Positions 3,001 to 32,498 of a DNA stretch of 64,000 nt are shown here, one piece after another. Made by a program: the position numbers and the translations under genes. The notes under the pieces are model-generated. The model did no database searches. It saw only the letters and a program-made list of their open reading frames with translations, and was not told where the DNA came from. The DNA comes from Botryllus schlosseri (Eukaryota). The stretch is from positions 11,904,001-11,968,000 of the forward strand of contig CM119385.1 of assembly GCA_051294905.1 (NCBI GenBank), read 5' to 3'. Each line of letters begins with the position of its first letter. The stretch's first letter is position 1.

Positions 3001-6000
3001 GAATAAATTCTGAATTCATATTCACCTCAAGTATTATCATATAAGTGACACAGGTTAAATTCAATTAGAAGAAGGGTTGTAAACCGAGTCACAAGTCAAT
3101 CTCACTTTTATAGTTTTGACTTGAGTCAATACGATTTATTTTCAATTCACCAACGACTCAAGTCCGAGTCCAAGTCAGCTAGTAGAGGTCGAGTCCAGGT
3201 CATAGTGTTTGACTCGAGTCCGAGTCCAAGTCATTATGTTTACTGATCAGCTTTCAGTTCAATGCCGCTCAATTCACTTTTTCGACTCTGCACGAGTGAT
3301 TTAAAATGGCCCGCATTCATAATATAGTGGTTTTCCTCAGTCTTAACAGTTTCATGCCCTATTTCCCAAGTATCAGGACTGATAGACGAAATACCAATAA
3401 CGTGGTAACTTTACTATTTTTCGAAGTTACAATAAAATGTATATATGTCTTGGTCATCGTAGTCTCGAGTCATTTTACGCATTTGAAGAAATGACTCGAG
3501 TCACCAAAAAATCGAGACTCGAATCGAGTCATTACAACCCTGATAAGCAGCCTATCAGGTCGTCTCATCGTTACTACAGACTACAGCCTAGAGATTACTA
3601 GCAATGTCAAGCTTATATTAGTCATACGACTACACTCAAAATCCAAGTTCCCATGATCCAAGTTCCTTGATAGTGCAGACAAAAATATAAACTATCCTCC
3701 TTCGTCTTCATTTATGACGTTCCCAATATCGTCGCGGTGGTATCAAAGTAGCTTATGTCCATTTTTTCAAAGTTCGAGATCCACTTTACAATTGATAGAA
3801 AATCAAGATTTTGGAAAATTTTCCCATTTTTTGGTCCATACCTCGGCCAAATGGCTTTTGTTTGTCACATTGTTTCAAAGTGAACCATGTCCTATTATAT
3901 GGCCGAAAGATTATCAAAACTTTACACAAAGTGAAATTTTTCAAAATGTGTAAAATGGACTGAGGCTAAGCTACTCTTACTCCACTGCGACGATGTGTAG
4001 GCTACTTTTCTCTAGGGTGTATTTATGCCATTTGATGATATGGAGATTGGGTAAACATTCTTTTATATAGGATTCAAATTCAAACTTGAAACTTCTCATT
4101 ATAGTTGATATCTTACCAACAGGAGGACCCCAAAGTCTTTCTGCTTTGTGTATATGTAATGACCGGAATATTCGGTCCCAACGAATGATAGTGTCGTATT
4201 CCCCTTGAATGTCATTGTCGTAATACTTCAGAATATCCCACGCAACGTCGATAGCTTTTGGATCATGCAAATCCTGCAACATAATAATGTGAACACATGA
4301 GGTTTCATTCAATTTCTTATATTATGTTTGTGAAGAGTATTAGACTAGAGCTGAGTCATAAAATATGAAATGCTTCTTGGAGGTACAGAACTTCAATATA
4401 CAATTGAATAGTATATTCATATTGAAATGAACCCGAATATTTTCGGCTGACACTCGTCAGGGGTAATCGTCAGCAACTAGTAGAGAATTGGAAAGAACAT
4501 TGTATATCAACAATCGTATCACAAAATATGACGTCACCAGCATGAGAGAGAGAGCGTTCAATGTACTATTTTTAGGTGGTACACGAACTCCTTTTGTTGA
4601 CAGAGTTTTGGTTGGTGTATTTTGATAAAAGTCGACTCCAAGGCACACAAATGGAATTTGTGCCTATTTTTAGGTGGTACACGAACTCCTTTTGTTGACA
4701 GAGTTTTGGTTGGTGTATTTTGATAAAAGTCGACTCCAAGGCACACAAATGGAATTTGTGCCTATTTTTAGGTGGTACACGAACTCCTTTAGTTGACAGA
4801 GTTTTGGTTGGTGTATTTTGATAAAAGTCGTCTCCTAGGCACACAAATTCCACCAAAACCCTGTCAACAAAAGGAGTTCGTGTACCACCTAAAAATAGTA
4901 CATTGAATGCTCTCTCTCTCATGCTGGTGACGTCATATTTTGTGATACGATTGTTGATATACAATGTTCTTTCCAATTCTCTACTAGTTAATGACGATTA
5001 CCCCTGACGAGGGTCAGTCGAAAATATTCGGGTTCATTTCAATGTAAATATACTATTCAAAAATATGAAATCATCACTTATATCAGTTACATGCAGCACA
5101 CTGTGAGGTTTGAATGAAAATGACAATTATGAAACAAAGAGAGAGAGAGAAAGGAAGAGTATGGCTTATTAATCATCGTTCATATATAGGCATAAATTTT
5201 ATTTACATTTACTGTATGTCTGTATCGTCCTTTGCAGTTTGCAGTAGGCCTATACCCATCATTGTAGCCTACTATGTTCTCTCTCAATCATTTTGTGTCT
5301 TGTAAAATTTTGTTCAATATATGTCTTATTTCCGGTGATAAAATTAACTCTCTCTCTCTCTCTCTCTCTCTCTCATGCAGTTATCCAATATTGATTAACG
5401 CTATCCTATCGTGACACTGCTATAACTATAAAACTTACCAAAACATTTTGTCCTATCCAGATTTTATTTCTTCCTTTCAACGGCGTCAAAATCATTTCTT
5501 CGCCGGCCATGACTTTTTCTTTTCAGTCAGCAGTTCTAACTGGGCGTGGGGTATTCCATATCATTTATACTTTTGCTATAGCTGTAGTAAATCTTCACAG
5601 CCGTCGACAGAGTTTACAGCAAAACCTTGATAGCAATCACTATTTTGATCCTGCGAAAACAGCTTATTGATGCATAACCATCACCATCACTGAGCTCTAT
5701 GAACCATAGATCTAGGTGTAGATTAGGTACGTAGCCAGCAAACTTCATCAACATCATGGTATTAAAATTTTAATCAAATCGATACTTCACAAAATTTCGA
5801 CATAATGAAATGATTGGGTGTGCCGGAAGGACTTGTAGTGGTCTTTTAATCAGGCACCCACCTTACGTGTATCCTTCCTGACTGCTTTCTCAATTTTGTA
5901 CTCAATGAATATTGAACAACCAGTGATATAGTATGTATGTCATTGATGAACAACGAATGACTGATGAGAACAGGAGTACCATGAGATGGGCAATAGATAT

Positions 6001-10412: not shown

Positions 10413-12131
10413 TCATTCTCCCCAAAACCATTTCTGTGCTCCCTTGTCTTTATCGCAGTCTCTTATCACTACAATGGCAGCACCTCCGTCCACTTTTCCT
10501 TCAAGGCATTTATTCGTGCCTGGATTACGCAATACTTCATCTTTGAGAACCCAAACCTGTGATGCCGGTACATCTCTATTGTCATTCGTGCAGTCGACCA
10601 TCGTCAAACCATCTTCCGCATGCACTGTAGCCATACACATCTCCTTCTCCGAATTGAATCTGACCTCGTTACGGGAAGTGAACTCAAAGAATTGATTGCC
10701 GCCTTGTCCATGACAACCGTACATCGCTACTTTACCGCCTGTCGGATTGTTAGGGGGAGGCGCATAATCCAAACAATATGAAGTATACCCTCTATTATGT
10801 AAAGAACCGTAAAACCCAGGTCTGTCTTCTGGAACGTGCAGATCCGGATATATATTATCTAGATACCATTTGAAAGATTTACAATCGAGTCGTTCTCGTA
10901 GAGCCTTGCGGTCCGACACATCACCGTAGTCTTCATGCTTGGCGGGTGGGTTTCTGATGTAAAAATGCCGCTTGTAATCGTCCATCCACACCTCGGCCGC
11001 TCTCAACGTGTTGGGCACAAATTTGGGGCGAGGATACGGCGCCTGCTTGGGGAAGACATGCCCCACATGCGAACACGGGATGGTTTCCAAGACTCCGCCG
11101 CACATCCAAACTCGGAATGATAACTCCAAGTTCTCCCCACCCCATATCTCCATTCCTGTGTCGTAAGTACCGATGTAGGAGAAATACGCCTTGCTTACCG
11201 CGAACAGACCGCCAGCCATAGTCGGAGAACGGATTGGATCTGCGATAGATTTTCGCCGTTTCCTTTCTTCATACGGAATCGAATGCCATTGGAACGTCAA
11301 GCGCCAATCAAACCCTCCGATTTGTGGTTCGTTACCACCAAAATAATACTCAAAAGTATCGTAATCGATAGTGTCAATAACAGGCACTACTACCGCTGAT
11401 TCCTCCTGCATTACCCTCTCAAGCAAAGGCTCCAACCACCCCTCCATACACTCGCAATGGCAATCGAGAAAAGTCAACACATCGCCTGTCGCGTGAGACG
11501 CTCCCAACAGCCTGGCGCGCACCAACCCCTCGCGTTTCACAGTACGTATGAGCCGCACGCGAGGCACATCCTTCAAGTATTTTTCCAGAGGTTCCTTCAA
11601 ATGAGGCTTGTCGCTGAAATCGTCGACTAGTATGATCTCTCGTAGCAATCCAGCGGGCGACGTGTGCAAAACGCTGAATATGGTTCTGATGAGAGTAGAC
11701 CAGCCTTCGTTGTAGAAAGCAATCACAACGGAGGTCGTTGGCATTCTGCGGTAATCGAACGGCGCGCGGTGTTTGCACAAATCGTGTCTTTTGTCTTTAA
11801 TCGCGCGGTGCAGTGAAATCCTCTCGCTGATGTACTGGTTAACGGCGTAAGTCTGTATGCTTTCATCCTGTTTCTCTTTCTCGTCGGGATCGAGCAAACG
11901 AGCAGCTTCACCTCCTTGCCCTAGCTGGAGCGGATCGTTTTTAGGCCTGTCCAAAACTGGCTTCTGCATTTCTTTGTAGATACCGTCAATTACCACAGAG
12001 TCCAACCCCTTTTCGATATACACTCCGTCATTGGACACAGCGTTAATATAAATGAAATACAGAATAGTTCCAACGACAGCAGCCACCAAGAATCGCCTTC
12101 TCTTAGGAACCTTCCAATTGAGAGTTTTCAT
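10413..12131 (-). CDS. GALNT4: Polypeptide N-acetylgalactosaminyltransferase, GALNT4/12 clade, 572 aa, intronless CDS
   Basis: Has an N-terminal TM anchor, the GT27 motifs TFLDCHCE and WGGENLELS, and a C-terminal ricin lectin domain (GCHGQGGNQFF). Long stretches are nearly identical to recalled human GALNT4. The paralog call (GALNT4 vs GALNT12) is not certain. Confidence 0.9.
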   Translation of the reverse strand: MKTLNWKVPKRRRFLVAAVVGTILYFIYINAVSNDGVYIEKGLDSVVIDGIYKEMQKPVLDRPKNDPLQLGQGGEAARLLDPDEKEKQDESIQTYAVNQYISERISLHRAIKDKRHDLCKHRAPFDYRRMPTTSVVIAFYNEGWSTLIRTIFSVLHTSPAGLLREIILVDDFSDKPHLKEPLEKYLKDVPRVRLIRTVKREGLVRARLLGASHATGDVLTFLDCHCECMEGWLEPLLERVMQEESAVVVPVIDTIDYDTFEYYFGGNEPQIGGFDWRLTFQWHSIPYEERKRRKSIADPIRSPTMAGGLFAVSKAYFSYIGTYDTGMEIWGGENLELSFRVWMCGGVLETIPCSHVGHVFPKQAPYPRPKFVPNTLRAAEVWMDDYKRHFYIRNPPAKHEDYGDVSDRKALRERLDCKSFKWYLDNIYPDLHVPEDRPGFYGSLHNRGYTSYCLDYAPPPNNPTGGKVAMYGCHGQGGNQFFEFTSRNEVRFNSEKEMCMATVHAEDGLTMVDCTNDNRDVPASQVWVLKDEVLRNPGTNKCLEGKVDGGAAIVVIRDCDKDKGAQKWFWGE

Positions 12132-12608: not shown

Positions 12609-14462
12609 TCATATGGTTTCGGCAACAGTGACTTTTTCTGCAGTTTCGACAGATTCCTCTACAGCAGACTTCTCTGGGATAGTTTCAGGAGCGTCTTTAG
12701 AAACTTCGGAACCATTTTCTGGCATTTCCGTACACTTTGTCAGAGAGACCTTGCATTCTTTTGCAGGCTTTTTCGAGGAAGTGTCAGTGGATTCATCCGC
12801 TGCAACTTCGGAATGTTTGTCAGAAGAAATTTGTGCCGTTTTTTCCGGAGACGCTTTCGTAGTTACATCGGGAGCTTCGTCAGCCTGCTTTCGATCGATT
12901 TCAGCTAATTTGACATCCTTGTCCCCGGAATCACCGATACTTTTTGCTGCTCCGTTAGAATCGATTGTTTTTTCAATTTCCGGCAAATCTACGGATTTGG
13001 CAGCTGGCGTTTGCGAGTTTTCAGAGAGTTTACCGTCTTCCGAAGTTTCCATCTTTTCCACGATCTTCTCGGGCACCGGCGTCCCCTTCTTGTCGGCCTT
13101 ATCTTCCGCTGTATCTTCGCTCGAAGATTCCTGCTTCATTTTCTTGACATCGCTGGCTCCCGTGTCATCAGGCGAGCCACGCTTGCGTCGAACCAAATGA
13201 GTTATGTCGCACGTCGACTCTTTGGGGCGTGCGGCTGACTTCTTTTTCACGGTGATAACGGAGGCGGAAGAACTTGAAGAAATGTCATCGTCGCTACCGA
13301 AACCGATTGTGGTGCGACTCGTCGACGCCGTGTGGCGCTGGCCTTGCGACGAATTCTGCCGCATCAAAAGCAAAACATCTTCAATCTTGGAATTGATATC
13401 CGGCATGAGCTCTTTGATTTCGCTGACTTCCTTGCATTCCGACAATTGAGCTGCCTCATGCTCTGGATCAGCATCGCCCGAGGTGATGGAGAACTCAAGA
13501 GAGGATATTCTCTGTTGGAGCACGAACCGTGAGCTCTTGTAGTGGTCCCACGCCTTTTCGTACATTTTCTGAAAAGTGTACGCCAAACCGAGATTGTAAT
13601 GGGTCTCGGCCAGTTTCCTATCGATCGCGGCCAAGTGGTTTTGCTGCAGCATCAGACATTTGTTCAAATCGTCGATCGCCTGCTCGTAGTTCTCCAGCTC
13701 AAGACCCAGCTCGCCCAACTTGAGATGGCATTGAGCGATCATCAGATAATTCTCTTTGCATTTCCGCTTCTTCATAAAGAGTACTTTTGCCAATTCTAAC
13801 ATTTCCCAAGCCAGCTGCATGTTTGAAACGTCGTCAGGGTCTTCTAAGTCTTCTCCCGCACTTTCCTCATCCTGACTGGAGCACGGTTGATCACCTTTGC
13901 TCGCTCCTAGTCCCGGAGACTTTGCGGCTTTACTCGAGCATGGTTGATCGGCGTCAGATTTTTCACTTTTTTCGGTCACTGGTGATTCAACTGATTTTTC
14001 AGCGCTCTTTTCCTCTTTCGCATCAGATTCGACTTCGGAAGCTTCAGAACTTTCCGCTTCCGTTGATTCTTCTTTCGACATTGCCGAAGCGACAGCCACG
14101 CGCAGCTTCAGTCTTTCCGCCCCTTCCAAATTGGGCTTCTCAAACTGTTCTTCGTCCTTATCAGATTCTTCGGATTCCGGGACCCCTTTCAAAGCATTTC
14201 CCAACACTCCATTTTCCATCCTCGCCAGCTCTAACAGCGAGACGCCGTAGTAGTAATACGCTTCGCTGCATTCCTCGGACATCTCTCCGTGCTTTTCGGA
14301 CAACAGCGAGCAAGCGTCTTGAAAGCACACGATTGCGGAAGAGTAATCGCTGCAGAGGTAGTGCTTCTTGCCCAGCCCCATGTTTTCTTTGATCGCGGCG
14401 TCCACATCGGGCACGCTGGCTTCGCTGCTGGAGTCCATGATTTCTGTGGGATTCTGAACCAT
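12609..14462 (-). CDS. NASP: Histone chaperone NASP (SHNi-TPR), ~617 aa, intronless CDS
   Basis: Motifs LLELARMENGVLGNAL, NMQLAWEMLELAKV, AQCHLKLGEL, ETHYNLGLAY and DITHLVRRKR (NLS) are present. The first ATG is at 14462; the ORF track starts at an upstream GTG. Confidence 0.93.
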   Translation of the reverse strand: MVQNPTEIMDSSSEASVPDVDAAIKENMGLGKKHYLCSDYSSAIVCFQDACSLLSEKHGEMSEECSEAYYYYGVSLLELARMENGVLGNALKGVPESEESDKDEEQFEKPNLEGAERLKLRVAVASAMSKEESTEAESSEASEVESDAKEEKSAEKSVESPVTEKSEKSDADQPCSSKAAKSPGLGASKGDQPCSSQDEESAGEDLEDPDDVSNMQLAWEMLELAKVLFMKKRKCKENYLMIAQCHLKLGELGLELENYEQAIDDLNKCLMLQQNHLAAIDRKLAETHYNLGLAYTFQKMYEKAWDHYKSSRFVLQQRISSLEFSITSGDADPEHEAAQLSECKEVSEIKELMPDINSKIEDVLLLMRQNSSQGQRHTASTSRTTIGFGSDDDISSSSSASVITVKKKSAARPKESTCDITHLVRRKRGSPDDTGASDVKKMKQESSSEDTAEDKADKKGTPVPEKIVEKMETSEDGKLSENSQTPAAKSVDLPEIEKTIDSNGAAKSIGDSGDKDVKLAEIDRKQADEAPDVTTKASPEKTAQISSDKHSEVAADESTDTSSKKPAKECKVSLTKCTEMPENGSEVSKDAPETIPEKSAVEESVETAEKVTVAETI

Positions 14463-17098: not shown

Positions 17099-18280
17099 CA
17101 ATTCGGCGGAATCTTTGTGATCATGTGAAACACCAACTTTGCGCTCACGCGAAATAACCCTCGACCCATCGAAGCACCGACTGCTTCAAATAATCGGATC
17201 TATTCTGTGTCGGAATATTTCGCTTTTAGGGCATATACCACGCCAATGTGTCCTGCTTTCCACATGCTATAACGTCGCATGCTCAACTGTCGTTTTTCAT
17301 TGTGTCGCATGCTTATGTCGGGCAACCGCGCCAAACACACATTCCGGTATTTCAAAGCACTGTATTATCAGATCGCATTTAGTCCTGGTTTATTTAAAAT
17401 ACGGGTAGCACCTTTAACGCTATCTTGCGCTCTCAGTATAATTTTGCGTCAATGTCAATGTACGGCAAATGTCAAATTTCAGGCTGGATTCAAAAGAGTA
17501 CCTGACCTGCAATTCCGACGATGATGAACAAATCTAATTCAAATCTATTTTCAGATTTCAGTTCGTCCAGGTTAATTACGAATGCGAGGAGCAAAGTTAC
17601 GTTACATCATAGTGTCCTATAGGACACTATGGTTATATGGCGCTGTCGCGCATTGCTGGCCTCAATTCCATTGTACGGCAAATTGCAGATGTCAGGCCGC
17701 GGATTCAAAAGTGTACCTGACCTACAATTCAGACAATGAACACATCATCGGGATCGGAAAGAGCTCTCAAATTACTATATTTAAAATCTAGTTTTTCAGT
17801 TCGTTCTGGTTAATTACGAATACGAGAATCAAAATTACGTTGTATTGCACTGTCGGGCGCATTGCTATAGAGTTATAGAGTCAATTCCAATGTACGGCAA
17901 ATACCAGATTTAAGGCCGGATCCAAGAGTGTATACCCTACCTACAATTCAGACAATGAACAAATCTTTGGCAAGAACATTCAAATTTACTTTAATTGAAA
18001 TCCATTTTCAGATTTGAGTTCGTCATGGTTAATTACGGTTACGAGTCTCAACAGTTTCGTTACATTGCGCTGTCGGGGGTTGCCGGCCTCAATTCCAATG
18101 TACGTCAATTTCCAGATTCAAGACCGGATTCAAGAGCGTAACTGACTTACAATTCAGACAATGAATACATCATCCAATCCATTTTCAGATTTCATTTCGC
18201 CCAGGTTAATTACCAAAACGAGTAGCCTACCAAAGTTACGTTATTGCGCTGTCGGGCATTCCAATGTACGGCAAATTTGA
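17099..18280 (+). repeat. Left arm of a ~1.2-kb long inverted repeat containing ~5 tandem ~210-bp units
   Basis: The anchor tacggcaaat (tacgtcaatt in the 18101 copy) recurs at 17461, 17674, 17893, 18101 and 18267. The outer part 17099-17410 matches the reverse complement of 28790-28975. Confidence 0.85.
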
Positions 18281-18832: not shown

Positions 18833-21637
18833 TATGCATACATAATTAAAGGCACCTGTAATTTGACAACAACAACAAAAACGTACGGTGGAGCTCGCGT
18901 TTTATCACTTTATGGCCATTCCGTGGGTTTGTTGCTATTTTGGGAAGTTCAAATATAGAAATCATAATATTAGTAGGCAAAGTCTGATGGAATATACAGA
19001 TCTGACATACCACGAAAGGTAGATAGAATTATGCAAAATCTTGTTGCGTGAAGTATACGTCTTATACCTATTGTGAAAGTTAAATATTCACATCCAAATC
19101 CCATGTTCTATGTCGAATGTGGATTGGACATATTTTCTTATAGGGCGTAGACCTTTAAAAATGGAAATATATAATAATTCATCGTGTCCCAACCCCAGAC
19201 ACGCCTGTCCTCATTGCACAATGCACAGCGATCACTATCGCTCCGATATACAGTAACGCTATGAAAACACCAAGTATGCTTATCCCTAATTTAAATGCAC
19301 TCATCCAGAAATATAAACATTCATTATCATTAGAGACTATGAAATTTAGATCACTCGCGATACGCGATAAATATCAGTGCACCATAATAATCGTGACGCA
19401 AGCTTCTTTCAAAACAAATTTTCAATTAGTCACACCATGACGCTATACGTCTACTTGAGTAAAAACGATGACTTCTTCGACATCTTCAGCTTGTCATGAA
19501 AAATACCAATAGTTTACCTCCAATCCCTGATACCGCTATTACTTTCACAGTTTCATATCGATTTCATATTATCGGCGAACCGAGAAATAGTAATCGGTCG
19601 GACGTCGGACTCTATAGTAATATGAGTTATAATGCCGCAATAATAGGTATATTCATGAGCATTGAGCAATGAGCATGCATCTATCTGATCACCGGCGGCG
19701 CAGCTATCTGTTTACGATCATGATAAAACGGATTCTTATCGGGTTCTAACTCAGACGTGAGAATTATAATATAATTACGTTAACTTTCGGCAGCAGAATT
19801 CAATGGAAATAAACGTTCTTGTCGTAATTCACATATCCTGGTAGAGGTGGTCAAAGTAGTCAAGAAAGCTACTCTACTAGAAGTAGACGTAGCGACGAAA
19901 AAAATCCACTCAAGTACGAGTATAAGTACTTCTTCCATAAGAAACCTAAAACTACTTGAAGTAGAAGTAGAATTGACTGACTTTAAAAGTTCTCATGTAA
20001 GTAAGTAGCCTAGTTGTGAAACGATCCTAATTCGTTCACATGGATTGTAAAAAGGTGCAAATTGAGCTATATGCGAAAGGTGACGAGCTTGATTCATATT
20101 GATGCATACCAACAGATGTCCAATTTTCGATAGCAAAAGCATTCCTCCACATCATGATAGTATTGATATGGAAATGCGATACTAATCCACTGTTTTCTTG
20201 AATAGCCCGTTTTAGAAAATAGCATGGTACGGCGCCATCCCCCACATTATAAAGCCCGTAGTTTAGTCGAAGAGCAATACGGAGAAGTTGTATACGGGAT
20301 ACGGTAGTAGTATAGTAGATCGCTCGCGATTCGTAATGGGTTCTTATGGGGCCCGCCCGACCGGTGCCTGGGTTAGTATAGGCATCTCTCGCACACGGCA
20401 GACTTGGACAACTAGAACATAGTAGTAGTGATACCGATTCGAACATTCTAAAATAATTGTCACCATCCAACCAAACTAATGAAAGTCGTTGTCAATTTGT
20501 TTGATATTCACTGCTGATTGCATTACTAGAACTATTTGTAGAACGCACACGATCAAAGAAATCGGAAATTTTCCCATTGTCATTCGTCAAAGTAAATGTC
20601 ATCACAATACTCAGGCACTAAAAGACATTTCTTGAATGTGATTGAATCGCCGGCTATTAACTCGCTAAATCAAACCCTAAGAAATTTTACTCACTCATCG
20701 GATATTAAACAGCGTCACTTAATCGGTGTGGATCGTTTTTTCTAAATACAAATCATATCCGTCCAGAAGAAAACAATTTTCACTAACTCGGAATATGAAA
20801 CCAGTGTGTGAGTCTTCATTCAATAAAAGATATTTCCATCACACAAAAATAATCCCCTTCACTCGAAATTCTCGTACCACGAAACTGTACAATGGTTTAA
20901 TGTTTTTGTATGACATGAATCAATTCCGATCGAGGTGACCGCGTTGGAAATAACTTTTATGCAAACACACTCTATGCAGTTAACATTTTCATCGAATTCC
21001 ATTGTGATTAATGCATACTTTATGTGTTCCGGATTCATATCGATATGGTTAAACATTCAACCGCGACAGATACGAATTGTCACCCACTCAACTAATGTCA
21101 TACCAAATAGTTATTTACAACAACCAAGACGCCGAAAATTTGTTTTGTCCCATTCGATTTTATTACTAGAGGTGTTCACCACTTCACTTACTACATTCTG
21201 GATTTAAGCTCCATCGGCTCATCGGCGTCCATCGTTTTACTGGATACAAATTATGTTAGTGTAGCAGAAAATATTTTCGTGTAGCAGAAAACAATTTTCA
21301 CTCTCGTGCTTTATGAAAAATACGCGAGTCTTCATCCAGTATTTTGTTTGTGTCAACTAGTTACTTATATAATACGACTGATAATCCCCGCGACTCATGC
21401 AAAAGTATGAAATATATTTACATCACACAAAGTACTCGACCTTACTCGATATTTTTGGTACTACGAAACTGAAGAATGATTGCCTACGCTTTCAAAATAA
21501 AGAATGATTGGTTAGACTCTACAAACTGTTTTGACGTCGCAAGTGTTTTTTAACATGAATGATCCAACGTAGCTTAATATTCACATAGTTCAACGCAGTT
21601 TACACAAAAGTTTGTATATGTACAATATGTGAATACC

Positions 21638-22233
21638 AAGGGTTCTAATGACTCGAGTCATGACTCGACTCGAGTCCGACTCGAGTCACGCTTTTCAGAT
21701 GACTCGACTTGACTCGAGTCATTTTCTCAAAATATGGAAATGACTCGACTCGACTCGAGTCCATTTGTGTATTGACTCGACTTATACTCGAGTCATTGCG
21801 CATGACTCGAACCAAGTCATATGACTCGAGATTCAGAAGACCAAGACCGACGTTTCATTGTAATTTCGAGGAATAGTCAAGTAATCACACTATTGGGATT
21901 TCATTTATTGGTACTGGCACTTGAAAACGTGTCCAGAATCTGCTAAAAATGACGTAAATTAGAATATTATAAATGCGAACCGTTCGATATCACCAAACAG
22001 AGTTATATAAAGTGGGTGTAGGAAGACTTTAACTGGAAACTGGGCAGTCAACACAATGACTTGGACTCGACTCAAGTCATATTACCATGACTCGGACTCG
22101 CCCCTCTGCTCGGTGACTTGGACTCGGACTTGACTCGGTGGTGAATTGAAAATGACTCGACTTGACTCGAGTCAAAACTATAGAACTGAGGTTGACTTGT
22201 GACTCGGAGCCTGGTGACTTGGTTACAAACCTG
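21638..22233. mobile_element. hAT-type MITE, GACTCGAGTC-rich family (copy 3)
   Basis: TIRs aagggttctaatgac / ggttacaaacctg; perfect 8-bp TSD tgaatacc. Confidence 0.9.
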
Positions 22234-23449
22234 TGAATACCATGCGTAAGTCCTGCACAACCGCGGTATCCATCCGAGTTTAGTTAACACAAATTTATTA
22301 CACCGTGATCGCGTCATCTTTCGTAAGACAAAAACCAACCACGGTTGAAGGATATGACAATGTTATAACAATAAATCATATCCAAATAACCCAACACGGA
22401 CCTAGTACACAGGAATATCGTAGTTCTTGTAGCAAAGTTGTATGTATAATATATGTTTATCATATGCCCACACATTCACGGTATATATCCGAGTTTTACT
22501 TTTAGGAAATATTATATCGACACCGCGACATCTTTCAAAAACAAAAACTATGGATCACTGCTTGAGAGGCCTATCAATGACATCATAGTAATCTAGTTAC
22601 TCCTACAAAAGAGTACGTATGTATTCTCGACACTATCCTTAAATCATACACACGAAACAATCTACTTCGCTAATGAAAAGTGCTGAGTCATCAAATGATT
22701 GCCCTCACGACAAAACAGCTAGAAGATATTATCATACAAAAATGTTCCTAACACTTTGCACAAATCATACAACGAATATGTTTTGTGAGTCGAATTGTTG
22801 TTCAGCGTCAAGTCTCCTGTTGAAACGTACATTAAAACAGCACAGTCACAATCCAATTAAAACCACGAATCTATTTTCATTTCGTCGCAAACTGTCACAT
22901 ACAGAAAAACAAATTTTCTTTACCCGACGTCAAAACATACTTGTAACCAATCGCTTTCATTAAACACACAATTCCATTAAAGTATTTACTTTCTACAACA
23001 TAGACATTCCGATGTAGTCAAGAAATATTTATATATTCAAAATCATCGACTTCTATTTACGGTGTTAGTGTGTGCATGTCATACCTGTGGGTCCGTATTA
23101 AAATGGACACGAAACGACTGGATGCAAGGAGATAGAAGTCTACCGCATCGATTTACATGTGGTCTTCGCTACGGTTTCAAAAAACGAATCACCTCTTTTG
23201 CATTGATCGAGACCGAACAAGTTAGTTGCATGTATTCATGGTAATGATTTTGCTTGTCATATGCGAATGATAGGGTTACTGTCACGACAAATCAAACCTA
23301 CATACAACAACCTTCTGACACTCATAATAGTAATTTCATTCTCTCCCTTCGTAATAGTATACTCACGACAAGAATAGGCTATAATGTGCATCTCGACAAC
23401 TACGTTTACCAAGACCGATGACACTGAACTCACGACGTTTACCTGTGTA

Positions 23450-23735
23450 AAATTACCATTTTTTGTTTGGAGCTCTACCGTTTCCCGAGTAAAATCACCA
23501 TTTTCACTTGGAGGTCTGCCGTTACCTGAGTAAAAATACCATTGTCCTTTGGAGATCTATCGTTTACCCAGAGTAACAATGCATTTTCACTTGGGGGTCT
23601 ATCGTTTCCTAGATCGAGTAACAAAACCCTTTTCCTTTGGAAATATATTTTTTCCTTGAGTAACAAACCATTTTCACTCGGAAATCTATCTTTTCCATGA
23701 GTAACAATACTATTTTCGTTTCGAAAACCGACTAC
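23450..23735. repeat. Degenerate ~42-bp minisatellite, 6-7 units
   Basis: gagtaa anchors occur at ~23487, 23528, 23571, 23616, 23658 and 23699. Confidence 0.75.
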
Positions 23736-24660
23736 CACACCCAACAATTTGATATTTTTGTATATTGTTACAACGGACAGCGACAAAATATACACCAACA
23801 ACGATTTCGATACATTTGTGTAATCACATATTCACTTGTTCTGGTGCATCCCATCAAAATCATCGGTTACCCGCATGCAATAACAATGTGCTGTTGTACA
23901 TCGACATGTATGTTTTCGGAATTGGCGAATAAAGTGGTTTCCGATATGTCCGGGTTCGTGCTTTGGATTTTCCAGAGTAAAAATGTCTGAATAAAACACC
24001 TCCTCGACTTTGTCACCTGGTTGGTACCAGTGATGAGCATCGGAGCGGAGTCGGAGTGTATTCGGAGCGGAGCTTTGCCGATTTTGTGACACTCGGGGCG
24101 GAGTCGGAGTTTACAACAGATATTTTTTAGTAGTGTTGTAACTTTTGCCGCCGATATCTTAGGATGGCTCTGACCATAGAAGAAACTATTAATTACAAAC
24201 CAAAACACAGGCAGTTGCCACATTGTAAAGTTGTAATATGACGGGTAACATGCAAAAATGAATGCCAAGTGCATAAAAATCAGCCATCTGCACAGCAATG
24301 CAATTCAATGCACTCCGGTGGAGAGTAGACAATAATATAGGGCCAACCATATCATCACATCTAACTAGTAAAACACATTACCAAGTGTGCTTTGCTTGCC
24401 ACTCTAATGATATATAACTGGTTAAAATGGTATGATTGGCCACGAGCTATCTTAGCCTAGTGATATGGTAAGGCAGACTGACGAGACTGGACGAGATTCT
24501 TCGGATCGTCTCGGAGTCTGGGATTGAGCTCTTCGGAGTCAGAGGGAGATGCCTCAGAGACTAAAGTTATCGGAAGAATTCGGAGTCTTGAAAAGCACTA
24601 TCCGGTCATCACTGGTTGGTACATGGGTAACGGTGTTCGGAAATCGATGAATATATATTA

Positions 24661-26018
24661 ACAACCTTGCGTGCAGGGTGAGGGTGAGACAAGGGGAATC
24701 CCCAAAAACACACCGTTTCGTAGTCAACATATTTTATTATAAAGAGGCCTTACAAAATTTACAATCACCACCCTTATAATTACAATAACCATTTTCTTTG
24801 ACAATCATATCATGATAACGTAAAGATCTTAAATATTTGGCATGCTCTCTAACCAACATATCGGTAATAATTTCATCAGCAATCTTAGGATAACCATTCT
24901 TTTTTAAAAATTCAGCAATTTTACGAGTACTATAATTATGGACACAAGGTACTTTATGAGAGTGTCTAACGTGCTTGTGTACTCTACCACCGATTTGACG
25001 AGGCAGTTGAGCCTTAATACCTTGGATATAAATAACAACACGCAAATAATGCAAAAATGATGTAATCTTTTTACGCCTACCCCAACCTTTACCACAATTA
25101 CGCCAAACAGTTGAGGAATTTTTACTGTCAAGACTGATATAATGTCCGTGATCAATCTCAATATCATCATCATAACAACACTCGCACCAATGATCATTGA
25201 CTGGTACAATATGTTTTTTTACTCCATCCTCTTGTCCTTTGGTATAGATAACATGATAAGCGTGATTATCCTTGATAACCTTTTTAATAATATCATAGTG
25301 TCGACAAGTCTCAAGGATGAGTCCTTGTATTTGACTGTCTTGATCTTTATCCTCATTAACGTAACTCCAATCTAGTATAGGTAATTTGGCCTCGGTTGTT
25401 TTGGGTTTATTTGGTCCCTTTAAACATCTTTTAATATGGCGAGCAATACCAGATTTGTTGATCTCTTTAGTGCAGTGAGGGCACGATACTTTAGTAATCT
25501 TCATGATGTTCACCCGTTGACAATCTTTTTGGTAATGACAAATGATTGCAAATCACCCTCCTTATATACTTTTTGAGTTGTTTTTTATTAATAATTAACA
25601 AATTACGCAACCAACAAAACAATAAACTCAGAGAGGTCGTGTCCTTTGGTTGACCTCTATTTTTTAATTGCCTCGTAAAATTGGTGGTAGAGTACACAAG
25701 CATGTTGGACACTCTCATAAAGTACCTTGTGTCCATAATTATAGTACTCGTAAAACTGCTTAATTAAAAAAAATAATGGTTATCCTTAAGATTGCTGATG
25801 AAATTATTAATGATATGTTGCTTAGAGAGTATGCCAAATATTTAAGATTATTACGTTATCATGATATATGTTTGTCAAAGAAAATGGTTATTGGAATTAT
25901 GAGGGTTGTGGTGATTGTAAATTTTGTAACGTCTCTTTATAATAAAACATGTTGACTACGAAACGGTGTGTTTTTGGGGATTCCCCTTGTCTCACCCTCA
26001 CCCTGCACGCAAGGTTGT
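24661..26018. mobile_element. Fold-back unit with ~350-bp inverted arms (outer 70 bp identical) enclosing an intact ORF
   Basis: 24661-25008 is the reverse complement of ~25665-26018. The termini are acaaccttgcgtgcaggg...ccctgcacgcaaggttgt. No TSD was seen. Confidence 0.85.
24737..25513 (-). CDS. Unknown 258-aa intronless Cys/His-rich protein with an N-terminal C2HC-like zinc finger; probably TE- or virus-derived
   Basis: A 777-nt uninterrupted ORF in otherwise decayed DNA. Motifs: CPHC-x12-H-x3-C (CPHCTKEINKSGIARHIKRC), HWCECC, and C-terminal C-x6-C-x2-C. Family not recognised. Confidence 0.6.
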   Translation of the reverse strand: MNIMKITKVSCPHCTKEINKSGIARHIKRCLKGPNKPKTTEAKLPILDWSYVNEDKDQDSQIQGLILETCRHYDIIKKVIKDNHAYHVIYTKGQEDGVKKHIVPVNDHWCECCYDDDIEIDHGHYISLDSKNSSTVWRNCGKGWGRRKKITSFLHYLRVVIYIQGIKAQLPRQIGGRVHKHVRHSHKVPCVHNYSTRKIAEFLKKNGYPKIADEIITDMLVREHAKYLRSLRYHDMIVKENGYCNYKGGDCKFCKASL

Positions 26019-27764
26019 GAAAGTACGACATGCCGCCGAGCTCATATAAATAACGATATATATTGAAGTCGCACTCACCGTAGACGTTAGGATTAACTCG
26101 AATCGGTCATATCAAATAATTTGGAATATACACCTTATGTAAGGATCAATCACGTGATCAATATACTTGATACACATTCAACACCATACGAAGTACGAAA
26201 TGCCAACGCAGCCTATACCTGAAAGTACGACATCTTGACGCACCCCTAAGAAACAATGGCAGCGATTGGTGGGTCTGAAAGTACGAATCGCCACCACGAG
26301 TTTCGCGGCACCGGTTGAGCGATCGCTATACCGAAAAGTGTTACCGTGCGAGAGATGCCTATACTAACCCAGGCTGGTTGAGCGAAAGGGGGGGGGGGGT
26401 CAAAAGGGTCACCGGTTCAACACGAGTTTCGCGGCACCGGTCGAGTGAGCCCCATAAGAGCCCATTACGAATCACGAGCGATCTACTTACTATATAACAC
26501 TTTGCGCGAATAGTAACCTTTAATAAAAAATATGGTGGACCGTAAAAATGCCATATTGTGTAGCTTTATTACTACACTTGCTTTTATACTTCAACGTGTA
26601 TGTTATCCAGACAAAAGAACTGATATTAGTTATAACTCAAAGTATAGGATACTGGGAAAATTAAAAGTGAAATATAAATACTACTTGTAAAAGTGGAACA
26701 TGTATTTCATGCCTTTAGTCCCGAAAGTTTCAAAGGTGGTGTGCTAAAACCGCTCTAAAACTAAAAAAAGTCAGAGTCCATGTTTTCAGATTAGGACACG
26801 CCATGGAAATGCTAGATTACGATTGCGATTGCGAAACATCAGTTTCAAACGTTATGATGAGCCATACTGTGATGAATTATGTCATATGGACGAAGGGCGA
26901 CAATGTGGTGTAAACGGAACCAGCACGCCAACCCGCGACCTAAATTATATTCACCGATACTTTCGTGAAATCATCCTGGTCACTCCGTATCCACTGCGCG
27001 TGAAGCGCGACGAAAATTCTTGGCTTTACTCAACTTTTGTGAAAATTAAATGTCGATACCCAGTGAAAACAGCCCTGATATTCCTCAGGCCATCTTCCTG
27101 ATTGGTGGATTGAACTACTTCTACTCGACAAACTGAAAATAGCGAAAAGTAAGTAACTAGACCACAAAATATTACGAAGTAGAAGTAGCGAAAATCAGAT
27201 CTACTTAAGTAAGTACCAGAAGTAGAGAAAAACTAGTTGAGTACTTCGAAAAAGTAGAAGTACTTCGTTACTGACCACCTCTACCATGGGCTCGAATCGC
27301 TCAGCCCTCAACTAATGTCGCAATGAATGCTTACAATTCACAGATCCGGCAAAAGTATCCTTAAATTCGATGCAGGCGACTTGCTGTAGGCCTACTGTAC
27401 AGTCTCACGCAAAGATACAACATCCTCTTACTTCGCAGCAACGCATATGAGAATGTGAGATGCATATAGCGGGGTTGCCGGAACAAGTTGCGGAAAAGGG
27501 TAAGATATTGTCAGATTCGGGGCCAATTAGGGGCATATCTCAAAACAACAGGAGTGAGCATGAGCATAAATAGGGAAATTTCGGTGGATGACTAGCAGTC
27601 TTATTGATAGTTAAAACAGCAGCTAGCAAAGTATCCTTGTTAGCGGGAAATATAGCTTGCATCAGATAAAAGGGATACCGACAGTAATAATACTTGAAAA
27701 TTTAGTCATCAAAAAACACGTAGCATGCACTGTACAAAAGCGGAATAAAACGAAAAATTATTTC

Positions 27765-28975
27765 TCGTATTCTATTCGTAATTAACCAGGACCAACTAAA
27801 AATGGAATTGAATTAAAGTGATTTGAAAGCTCTTTCCGGTGATGTGTTGTATTTTATTTGTTGGTCAGGTACACTCTTGAATCCGGCCAAAAATCTGAAA
27901 TTTGCCGTACATTGGAATTGAGGCCAGCAATGGAAGCAATGCCCGACGGCGCTATGTTAAGTAACTTTGGTGCTCGTAATCGTAATTAAACAGACGAGCC
28001 GACAACTGAAAATAGATTTTTATTAAATATATTTGAAAGCTCTTTCCAATGATGTGTTCATTGTTTGAATTGTAGGTCAGGTAGGCCTACACTTTTGAAT
28101 ACGGCCTGACATCTAGAATTTGCCGTACATTAAAATTGAGGCCAGCATGACCGACAATGCAATGTAACGTAATTTGATACTAGTGTTCGTCATTAACCTG
28201 GACGAACTGAAATATGAAAATGGGTTTTAATTTAAGTAATTTGAAAGCTCTTTGCGATGATGAGTTCATTGTCTGAATTGTAAGTCAGGTACACTTTTGA
28301 ATCCGGCCTGACACCTGGAATTTGCCGTACATTGGCATTGAGGCCAGCAATGCCCGACAACGCAATGTAACTTAACTTTGATACTCGTATTTGTAATTAA
28401 CCAGGACAAATTGATAACTGAAAATAGATTTTTATTCAAGTAATTTGAAAGCTCTTTCCCCAATGATGTGTTCATTGTCTAAATTGTAGGTCAGGTACAC
28501 TCTTGAATCCGGCTTTATCAGGAATTTGCCGTACATTGGAATTGACTCCTGCAATGCGCCCAACAGCGCAATGTAACTTAATTGTGATACTCGTATTCGT
28601 AATATACCTGGACAAACTGAAATCTGAAAATGGATTCGAATTGAAGTAACTTTAAAGCTCTTTCCGAGGATGTGATAATTCTCTGAATTATAGGTCAGGT
28701 GCACTTTTGAACCCAGCCTGAAATATGACATTTGCCGTACGTACATTGGCATTGAGGCAAATTACCGAGAGCACAATATCGAGGAAAGTTGCTTCCCGTA
28801 TTTGAAAGGAACCAGGACGAAATGCAATCTGAAAAATACGGTGCTTTGAAAGCCCAAATGTGTATTGATAGATCCGATTATTTAATAGGGCAGTCGGTGC
28901 TTAGATGGGTTAAGGGTCATTATTCTGTGTTCGCAAAAAGAGTCTTTCACGTGATCACAAAACTTCCGCCGAAAT
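27765..28975 (-). repeat. Right arm of the ~1.2-kb long inverted repeat, with 5 tandem ~205-bp units
   Basis: The anchor gccgtac occurs at 27904, 28122, 28324, 28528 and 28734. The outer part ends ...cagtcggtgcttagatGGG|TTAA (28907-28913). Confidence 0.85.
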
Positions 28976-31832: not shown

Positions 31833-32498
31833 ATGCCGAAGATCATCACTGGAACTATGGTCTGTACAGACACCAAAGACCAGGAAACTTACACAGAATC
31901 GAAGCCGTTGCATACTTATTATTGCCTTTGTGGGCAACTCATACTCATATTGGATTGTCCGTTACAAAGGCTGCCCTTGAGAAAAAGAGACAAAGCTCGT
32001 GTCATTAACAAAAAGAAGCATGCTTGTCGTTTTAATAATGTCGACGAAGATGAGGTAATATTTCTAAAGTGGTCAGATGGAATCGAGAAGCAATACCGAC
32101 AGAAGTGCAAAAGGTGTAATCTCCCGCTATTTTACCGACACAAAGGAGATAACCAAGACATCATATTTATCTACTTTGGTGGATTGGTTACAGAAGGCGA
32201 TAATGTATTCAAGATCAACGTCAACAACAAACCGAAGCAGCCGTCACAGAAGAAGATCACCCTCGTTAAACAGACAAAGGACATGGGAAAATTCAGCTCG
32301 GTCACGGTTTCTACAATTGACGACGAGGAGGAGGCGATGGAAGCACGAGAGGTTGCCGATTCTTATGCAGCCAATGCAAAAGTAATCGAAAGACAACTGG
32401 AAAGGAAAGGGATGCTGAAACGGAAGAGCAATCCGTCGGGAGGAAGTGCCGGCCTTTCTAAAAAAGTCAAGGGCACGTTAATTGATGGAATGGGTTAA
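31833..32498 (+). CDS. STEEP1: STING ER exit protein (UPF0428, CXorf56 ortholog), 221 aa, intronless CDS
   Basis: Motifs KPLHTYYCLCGQLILILDCPL..LPLR..D, EKQYRQKC..C.LPLFY and KDMGKFSSVTVSTID.EE...EAREVADSYA.NA..IE.QLERKG match the recalled CXorf56 protein and its length. Confidence 0.92.
   Translation: MPKIITGTMVCTDTKDQETYTESKPLHTYYCLCGQLILILDCPLQRLPLRKRDKARVINKKKHACRFNNVDEDEVIFLKWSDGIEKQYRQKCKRCNLPLFYRHKGDNQDIIFIYFGGLVTEGDNVFKINVNNKPKQPSQKKITLVKQTKDMGKFSSVTVSTIDDEEEAMEAREVADSYAANAKVIERQLERKGMLKRKSNPSGGSAGLSKKVKGTLIDGMG

Follow-up and report, generated by a model that had tools for sequence, protein, structure and literature searches.

HUH enzymes cut single DNA strands, keep the 5′ end on a tyrosine and leave a 3′-OH (excerpts of PMC3333891). 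According to excerpts of PMC10288648, two groups only of eukaryotic HUH transposons have been described, the Helitrons and the Replitrons. The latter were reported from the green lineage, stramenopiles, cryptophytes and haptophytes, and are elements of 2–4 kb with SUTU, HUQ and GYxxK motifs, direct terminal repeats and oriented insertion (Craig 2023, PMC10288648, in excerpt). Mavericks, or Polintons, are recognized in excerpts of PMC8097293 by (AGT)2 ends and a 6-bp target site duplication (TSD). The system that the element analyzed here works most like is bacterial, namely RAYT/TnpA(REP) with its REP, BIME and REPIN sequences, as it is presented in excerpts of PMC6006769 and PMC3333891.

The element lies in a window of 64,000 nucleotides (C15:11904001-11968000), whose relevant features are listed below. 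We consider it reasonably probable that this unit is a copy of a small inverted-repeat transposon confined to gene-less Polinton-ended fold-backs, and that its 255-aa protein, likely a Y1 HUH endonuclease, acts on single-stranded DNA and joins the two ends of the element, each by itself, to a host TTC. The family is multi-copy, with 5′-ACA ends, a one-sided TTC target, no fixed TSD, confinement to fold-backs, purifying selection and invariant motifs.

20306–26495, no strand: decayed host of the unit in the window, a gene-less fold-back with Polinton-type ends (left AGTAGT at 20306, degenerate right end near 26495)
24661–26018, no strand: gene-bearing fold-back form of the small element with terminal inverted repeats (TIRs), 1358 bp, 5′-ACA at each end
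24658–24660, plus strand: left junction, TTA, probably a decayed TTC
24661–24690, plus strand: left terminal inverted repeat core, 30 nt common to all ends, long and miniature
24661–25008, plus strand: left arm, the 3′ end of the intact gene and the terminus
24737–25504 (stop included), minus strand: ORF of 255 aa with an N-terminal C2HC zinc finger, a predicted HUH/Rep-like core, a long C-terminal helix and a Cys cluster
25022–25030, minus strand: Y159-I-Q161, predicted catalytic Tyr, at a helix end, invariant in 7/7 sequences
25142–25150, minus strand: H119-x-H121, predicted HUH motif, on a strand
25247–25258, minus strand: motif I-like Y-H-V-I (residues 83–86), first core strand, H-V-I invariant in 7/7 sequences
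25424–25483, minus strand: C2HC zinc finger, residues 8–27, Sgf11/UBZ-like, under the Pfam cut-off
25505–25665, minus strand: unique upstream region of the gene, likely its promoter, within the loop 25009–25665
25666–26018, plus strand: right arm, codons 166–255 inverted and frameshifted, and the terminus
25989–26018, minus strand: right terminal inverted repeat core
26019–26021, minus strand: host TTC target at the right end (GAA on the plus strand)

The right arm was found to be an inverted copy of codons 166–255 and the 3′ end, broken by indels of 3, 2, 1, 1 and 1 nt and by stops, in agreement with the original prediction of an inverted, frameshifted copy of the last ~90 codons and the sequence downstream. 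A short stretch of microhomology to the upstream region marks its start. Over ~354 aligned columns the two arms differ at 29 (91.6% identity), and the first difference falls at column 71, leaving the outer 70 nt identical as had been claimed. Identity had also been said to drop inward, but a step was found instead of a steady fall, with 0, 3, 7, 5, 4, 5, 4 and 1 differences per 50 columns (3–7 per 50 past column 70, with no trend). By an arithmetic estimate, the chance of 70 identical outer nt at the inner rate of 29/284 is ~0.0006. In the first 50 nt, the C3 copy differs from the window at 2 positions and the C6 copy at 5. Since the other copies differ within the stretch over which the arms of the window agree, the two ends were truly homogenized, as had been predicted, and general conservation is not the cause. 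The right arm shows 16 substitutions against the C3/C17 copies and 22 against its own left arm. The ORF is intact, although it counts 255 aa from its ATG and not the 258 first given, and it is the longest between 14.5 and 31.8 kb, in line with its description as the only long intact ORF of the repeat block.

The search of the genome (495 Mb) yielded 16 open-frame copies of the gene at 89–100% identity, on C3, C4, C6, C15 and C17 (the C17 array as assembled), eight of them full-length, in addition to the broken arm of the window and a distant broken relative on C9. The unit is neither a single-copy inversion nor a fragment of a known transposable element gene. The original alternative of a mobile unit or a linear viral-genome end with gene-containing inverted repeats was settled in favor of the former, this being a multi-copy 1.36-kb element nested in a larger one. 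All eight complete gene-bearing units are fold-backs of one build, consisting of the whole gene, the upstream region and then an inverted partial copy. This partial copy begins at codon ~6 (C3, C17), 56 (C6) or 166 (window), each time at a microhomology of 3–8 nt; from the three different starts it follows that the fold-back arose three times, with arms of 346–828 bp across the events. The dN/dS comparison proposed at the outset gave 0.31–0.39 between subfamilies (7 pairs, p 0.0004–0.006; 3 near-identical pairs were uninformative), which indicates purifying selection on the ORF. The truncated C4 copy, with very few changes to count, had a ratio of 0.44 when compared with the window and of 3.2 when compared with C3. 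Six public runs, labelled with five organism names and as a marine metagenome, also have contigs with the gene, at ~91–97% identity. No RNA dataset was listed as carrying the gene, and two RNA runs, possibly from another species and sampled at ~6% and 3%, had a depth of 0 over the ORF, which at this sampling is not evidence of silence.

The distant relative on C9 (G000:C9:5948146-5948856) has 32% identity and one internal stop, and lies outside any Polinton-ended fold-back, between exons of a gene of MAM-domain-like appearance. Directly upstream of it is a 164-bp unit with 33-nt inverted ends (C9:5947675-5947838), and the two may make up a second family, one whose ends are different.

The terminal 30 nt also flank miniatures of 122–181 bp (one of 480 bp), and ~59 gene-less miniatures share the ends of the gene-bearing unit. 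Two exact core patterns gave 95 and 34 matches, against 0 in the controls, in 20 loci, a lower bound. The 135 ends in the fetched regions were reduced to 61 distinct flanks, 55 of which end in TTC; at position -5 of these flanks A never occurs. Uninterrupted counterparts were found for 56 of the 61, most with the same trinucleotide, and the bases past TTC have no consensus (+1 was A27 G16 C7 T6); in this comparison a few best matches slipped by one base and one was an insertion into another element copy. Therefore, TTC belongs to the host, the first letters of the element are ACA, and the target lies on one side of the joint. The empty-site sequences rule out blunt insertion into a palindrome, TTC^GAA. 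Among the joints listed there was no empty-site joint for the insertion in the window, and its left TTA is probably a decayed TTC, because uninterrupted host copies read ATGTTT/ATGTTC there.

The two joints of one element were located at unrelated distances in the host, with no fixed TSD. Seventeen pairs were tried, two of them without mapping, and the outcomes included a 48-bp duplication (C12), ~290 bp lost or 930 bp duplicated (C6), 1.6–2.0 kb duplicated (C5) and pairs in opposite orientations; several pairs are ambiguous because the host itself is palindromic. Along the host arms, the joints are clean and involve about 50 different TTC sites. In the clusters, miniatures alternate with spacers of 36–68 bp or 0.7–1.2 kb, each in either orientation, and every spacer reads GAA...TTC. 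Panhandles form when the miniatures are folded (z -8.1 and -9.9), and the terminal 80 nt of a single end, examined for a subterminal hairpin, lent it no support, folding no better than shuffles. One miniature was seen inserted at a TTC within another (G000:C16:21191548-21191777).

Polintons had been named among the sets worth searching, and the unit does sit within a Polinton-ended fold-back, in the window a copy with no recognizable TSD. The AGTAGT end motif gave 768 + 756 matches, with 0 in the control, from which ~760 host elements, ~2% of the genome, can be deduced. Ten of the 11 element-free copies examined were gene-less fold-backs of 13–19 kb with arms of up to 6.5 kb (one of the ten carries an inserted retroelement), and TSDs were present in 9/10 checkable copies. 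With (AGT)2 termini and a 6-bp TSD, this host family shares its ends with Polintons and their non-autonomous fold-backs, as these are defined in excerpts of PMC8097293. In 20/20 loci of the small element both flanks matched at least 4/5 element-free fold-backs, compared with 0/200 arbitrary tiles, and the element was found only inside gene-less Polinton-ended fold-backs.

At ten loci, inverted duplications of 0.9–7 kb and more begin exactly at one end of the element; at four of them (C10, C13, C5:6.90 Mb and C3:21.39 Mb) the element lies at the palindrome center. The far ends of the palindromes are a second motif starting AGTAGT, with a 6-bp direct duplication outside and differing outer flanks. 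The multi-kb palindromes were also considered as a product of the element itself, and this was rejected: element-free hosts carry such arms too, so the arms are a host trait and the element marks their inner edge or center. In their best-aligned terminal segments the C3 and C17 hosts are 75–81% identical, whereas 6/765 nt differ between their genes; thus, either the element changed host lineage or the hosts recombined, and the hosts are mosaic.

The eleventh of the element-free copies examined, at G000:C1:34868426-34884932, is Polinton-like and bears genes; it too ends in AGTAGT and has a 6-bp TSD and 763-bp TIRs. It encodes an integrase with a chromodomain and a Walker-A ATPase, and its polymerase and capsids were unconfirmed by any profile library; a search of the genome with the protein-primed polymerase family gave no match anywhere and was uninformative. 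Six of its seven ORFs match a second Polinton-like element (G000:C11:4506703-4526063), which has 359-bp inverted repeats and lacks the end motif of the family. The C1 element is likely the helper of the satellite family. A 301-codon open frame with no Pfam match above cut-off was seen in the loop of an element-free fold-back (G000:C14:18173022-18173924).

The original prediction described an orphan zinc-finger ORF; the zinc finger is present, but only as an N-terminal addition to what is likely an HUH nuclease. By alignment and predicted structure, H119-x-H121, invariant in 7/7 sequences, is on strand E117-127 and Y159 on helix H150-161, and the order YHVI, HxH, YIQ is that of HUH motifs I-II-III. 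These catalytic-type motifs are the invariant residues across relatives at 22–37% identity, the middle residue of HxH being Gly in the window family and P0002, and Ile in P0003 and the C9 copy. P0002 and P0003 each come from one Logan contig (1.0 and 1.8 kb), and P0004 and P0005, which match the zinc finger only, were left out of the alignments. The best fold matches are replication Reps and not transposases, namely the virus and plasmid initiators SIRV1 ORF119 (a rudivirus), circovirus Rep and pMV158 RepB, with weak scores and 4–15% identity; in Foldseek, the leading viral match carries a parvovirus label (E 6.6e-4). Searches of Pfam, PHROGs, PDB sequences and the Atlas returned the zinc finger or noise only, with no nuclease profile match. 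PF01797 (Y1_Tnp) had no match at E <= 1 for P0001, P0002, P0003 and P0006. The complete 255-aa ORF has no helicase profile match and one invariant Tyr after the HUH motif, and a longer fused form was sought among longer proteins by a word-indexed search, a weak test, with none found. The word-indexed homologue search gave no match with the protein and P0003 only with the alignment, and viral, metagenome and prokaryote contigs held no related locus. The protein as modelled is likely an HUH enzyme of an undescribed family.

As in the RAYT system, a small protein of predicted Y1 HUH type without helicase is encoded between inverted ends, short cleavage specificity would be combined with activity on both strands, and non-autonomous inverted-end doublets form local arrays with variable linkers, beside or away from the gene (excerpts of PMC6006769 and PMC3333891). 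Unlike RAYTs, the element is from an animal, has no PF01797 match and carries perfect TIRs of 30 bp. Against the same excerpts, it also shows no apparent GTAG guide with a 20–25-nt hairpin, its gene is itself multi-copy, mobile and confined to Polinton satellites, and the HUH-to-Tyr spacing is ~40 aa where most TnpA(Y1) subclasses have medians of 58–67. With the Replitrons of PMC10288648, as excerpted, it shares a eukaryotic host, a predicted Y1-type Rep without helicase, a one-sided short target and a helical second domain, and with Replitron-1 duplications of variable length; it is set apart from those descriptions by YHVI, HxH and Y-I-Q in place of HUQ and GYxxK, by 30-bp inverted instead of short direct terminal repeats, and by its zinc finger and animal host. 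IS200/IS605 elements (IS608, ISDra2) resemble it in their motifs of the Y1 HUH type, in inserting 3′ of a short target without a fixed TSD and in the need for replication-made single strands that is expected of it, but have unlike ends, subterminal hairpins and one active strand, whereas here the two ends are alike and are joined on different strands. Helitrons and Helentrons are likewise HUH-type animal transposons without TSD; their Y2 Rep is fused to an SF1 helicase (RepHel in excerpts of PMC10288648), in contrast to the 255-aa Y1-type protein and TIRs of this element. Cut-and-paste DDE elements with TIRs (MITEs, foldbacks) have a fixed-length TSD and a symmetric target, whereas the joints here are at variable distances. 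Unlike the Polintons themselves, the unit has ACA ends, no TSD and one unrelated gene, as a passenger or parasite of satellites.

Polintons replicate by strand displacement, and in the satellites this replication would supply single strands, so that a helicase would not be needed. Having nicked TTC^ACA at one end of the element, the predicted enzyme would keep the 5′ end bound to Tyr159 until its transfer to a 3′-OH made at another TTC. Both strands begin TTC|ACA, and a nick there therefore frees only the 5′ end of each strand; with one end cut per strand, each event would swap one flank and leave a deletion, a variable-length duplication or an inversion between the joints. Once filled, the ends are TTC sites in their own right. 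Exchange from end to end, or a template switch between the inverted repeats, could thus flip miniatures and spacers, build arrays and, where two like arms are joined, place the element at the center of a perfect palindrome. Such flank swaps would be harmful in a chromosome, while in a linear replicon with identical ends all products would stay replicable: each would retain two Polinton ends, and the Polinton machinery would replicate it and integrate it with a 6-bp TSD. Insertion of rearranged products by the Polinton integrase fits the intact 6-bp TSDs around element-centered palindromes. A fold-back event would account for the arm in the window: through it the gene would have acquired its 3′ terminus a second time, with homogenization over 70 nt afterwards. 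Template switching between inverted repeats can explain the flips, the fold-backs and this homogenization without the enzyme, and the confinement may result from local hopping and riding rather than active targeting.

The Rep-like fold matches, including the parvovirus-labelled one, could also mean that the protein is a replication initiator and not a transposase, the unit being a hairpin-ended, parvovirus- or alphasatellite-like mini-replicon on the Polinton polymerase, with arrays and TTC joints as by-products of rolling-hairpin replication and mis-joining. The flip/flop arrays, the palindromes and the strong panhandles of the miniatures are in keeping with it, but the clean joints at ~50 different TTC sites on host arms, the absence of helicase and capsid genes, the lack of a relative in viral and metagenome contigs and, as viewed in an assembly, of free or covalently closed ends make it unlikely. 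Alternatively, the ORF could be non-catalytic cargo, a zinc-binding protein taken from a virus or Polinton, its ends moved by a DDE transposase, tyrosine recombinase or Polinton integrase encoded elsewhere. The missing nuclease profile match and the weak fold scores would suit such a protein, as would the fact that a gene-bearing copy with two different ends was not found. Nevertheless, a one-sided target without fixed TSD is unlike both DDE chemistry and the 6-bp TSD of the Polinton integrase, the catalytic-type motifs are invariant over 22–37% identity, the gene is the sole ORF between the ends and under selection, and the ORFs of the gene-bearing Polinton-like element match nothing in any element-bearing region, all of which renders cargo distinctly unlikely.

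It is very improbable that the fold-back serves mainly as the source of a 350-bp dsRNA hairpin silencing the gene family, or is a linear viral-genome end with gene-containing inverted repeats. The arms would pair on read-through transcription, and fold-backs are the rule among complete gene-bearing units (eight of eight); yet the arms range over 346–828 bp in the three events, starting at microhomologies as replication slips do, the unit is nested in a larger host with its own termini, and the ~59 gene-less miniatures are bounded by the same ends. Assembly artefacts from long-read fold-back chimeras, which the 99–100% identity of the C17 units and the 99.96% of some arms might suggest, are scarcely credible as the origin of the arrays and palindromes, given aged copies with arms at 91–97%, palindromic hosts with direct 6-bp TSDs and differing outer flanks, and the presence of the gene in the six independent public runs, one with a two-ended miniature and another with a TTC-ACA junction.

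The element is real and likely stands for a group of HUH mobile elements that is new. Searches of an open-access literature library, with excerpts of PMC11296320, showed nothing that describes an element of this kind. The broader proposal, whose chances we put a little short of even, is that it is a fifth independent HUH transposon group and the first with TIRs in eukaryotes, an animal counterpart of RAYT/REPIN and an obligate hyperparasite of Polinton satellites, which recombines the linear genomes of these satellites at TTC, by a single end in each event, and moves through chromosomes only via the Polinton integrase. If true, a third eukaryotic HUH group, with inverted ends, no helicase and a virus-like home, would extend the classification, and parasitism would be three levels deep (chromosome, Polinton, satellite, transposon). 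It would also provide indirect, testable evidence for Polinton-type replication through long-lived single strands in animals. Moreover, a 255-aa enzyme joining a 30-bp end to any TTC would allow a simple assay and could be a compact ssDNA-joining tool.

Additionally, arrays of a ~206-bp repeat, mutually inverted, flank the host element at 17411–18244 and 27794–28759, which suggests a still larger fold-back around it. A GalNAc-transferase (10413–12131, minus strand), a NASP-like TPR protein (12609–14462, minus strand) and STEEP1 (31833–32498, plus strand) are each encoded by one uninterrupted ORF. At 4404–5060 of the window, 209-bp inverted repeats (96%) flank three 98-bp tandem copies, and further copies of this MITE-like family were observed at 16.5, 29.9 and 50.2 kb.
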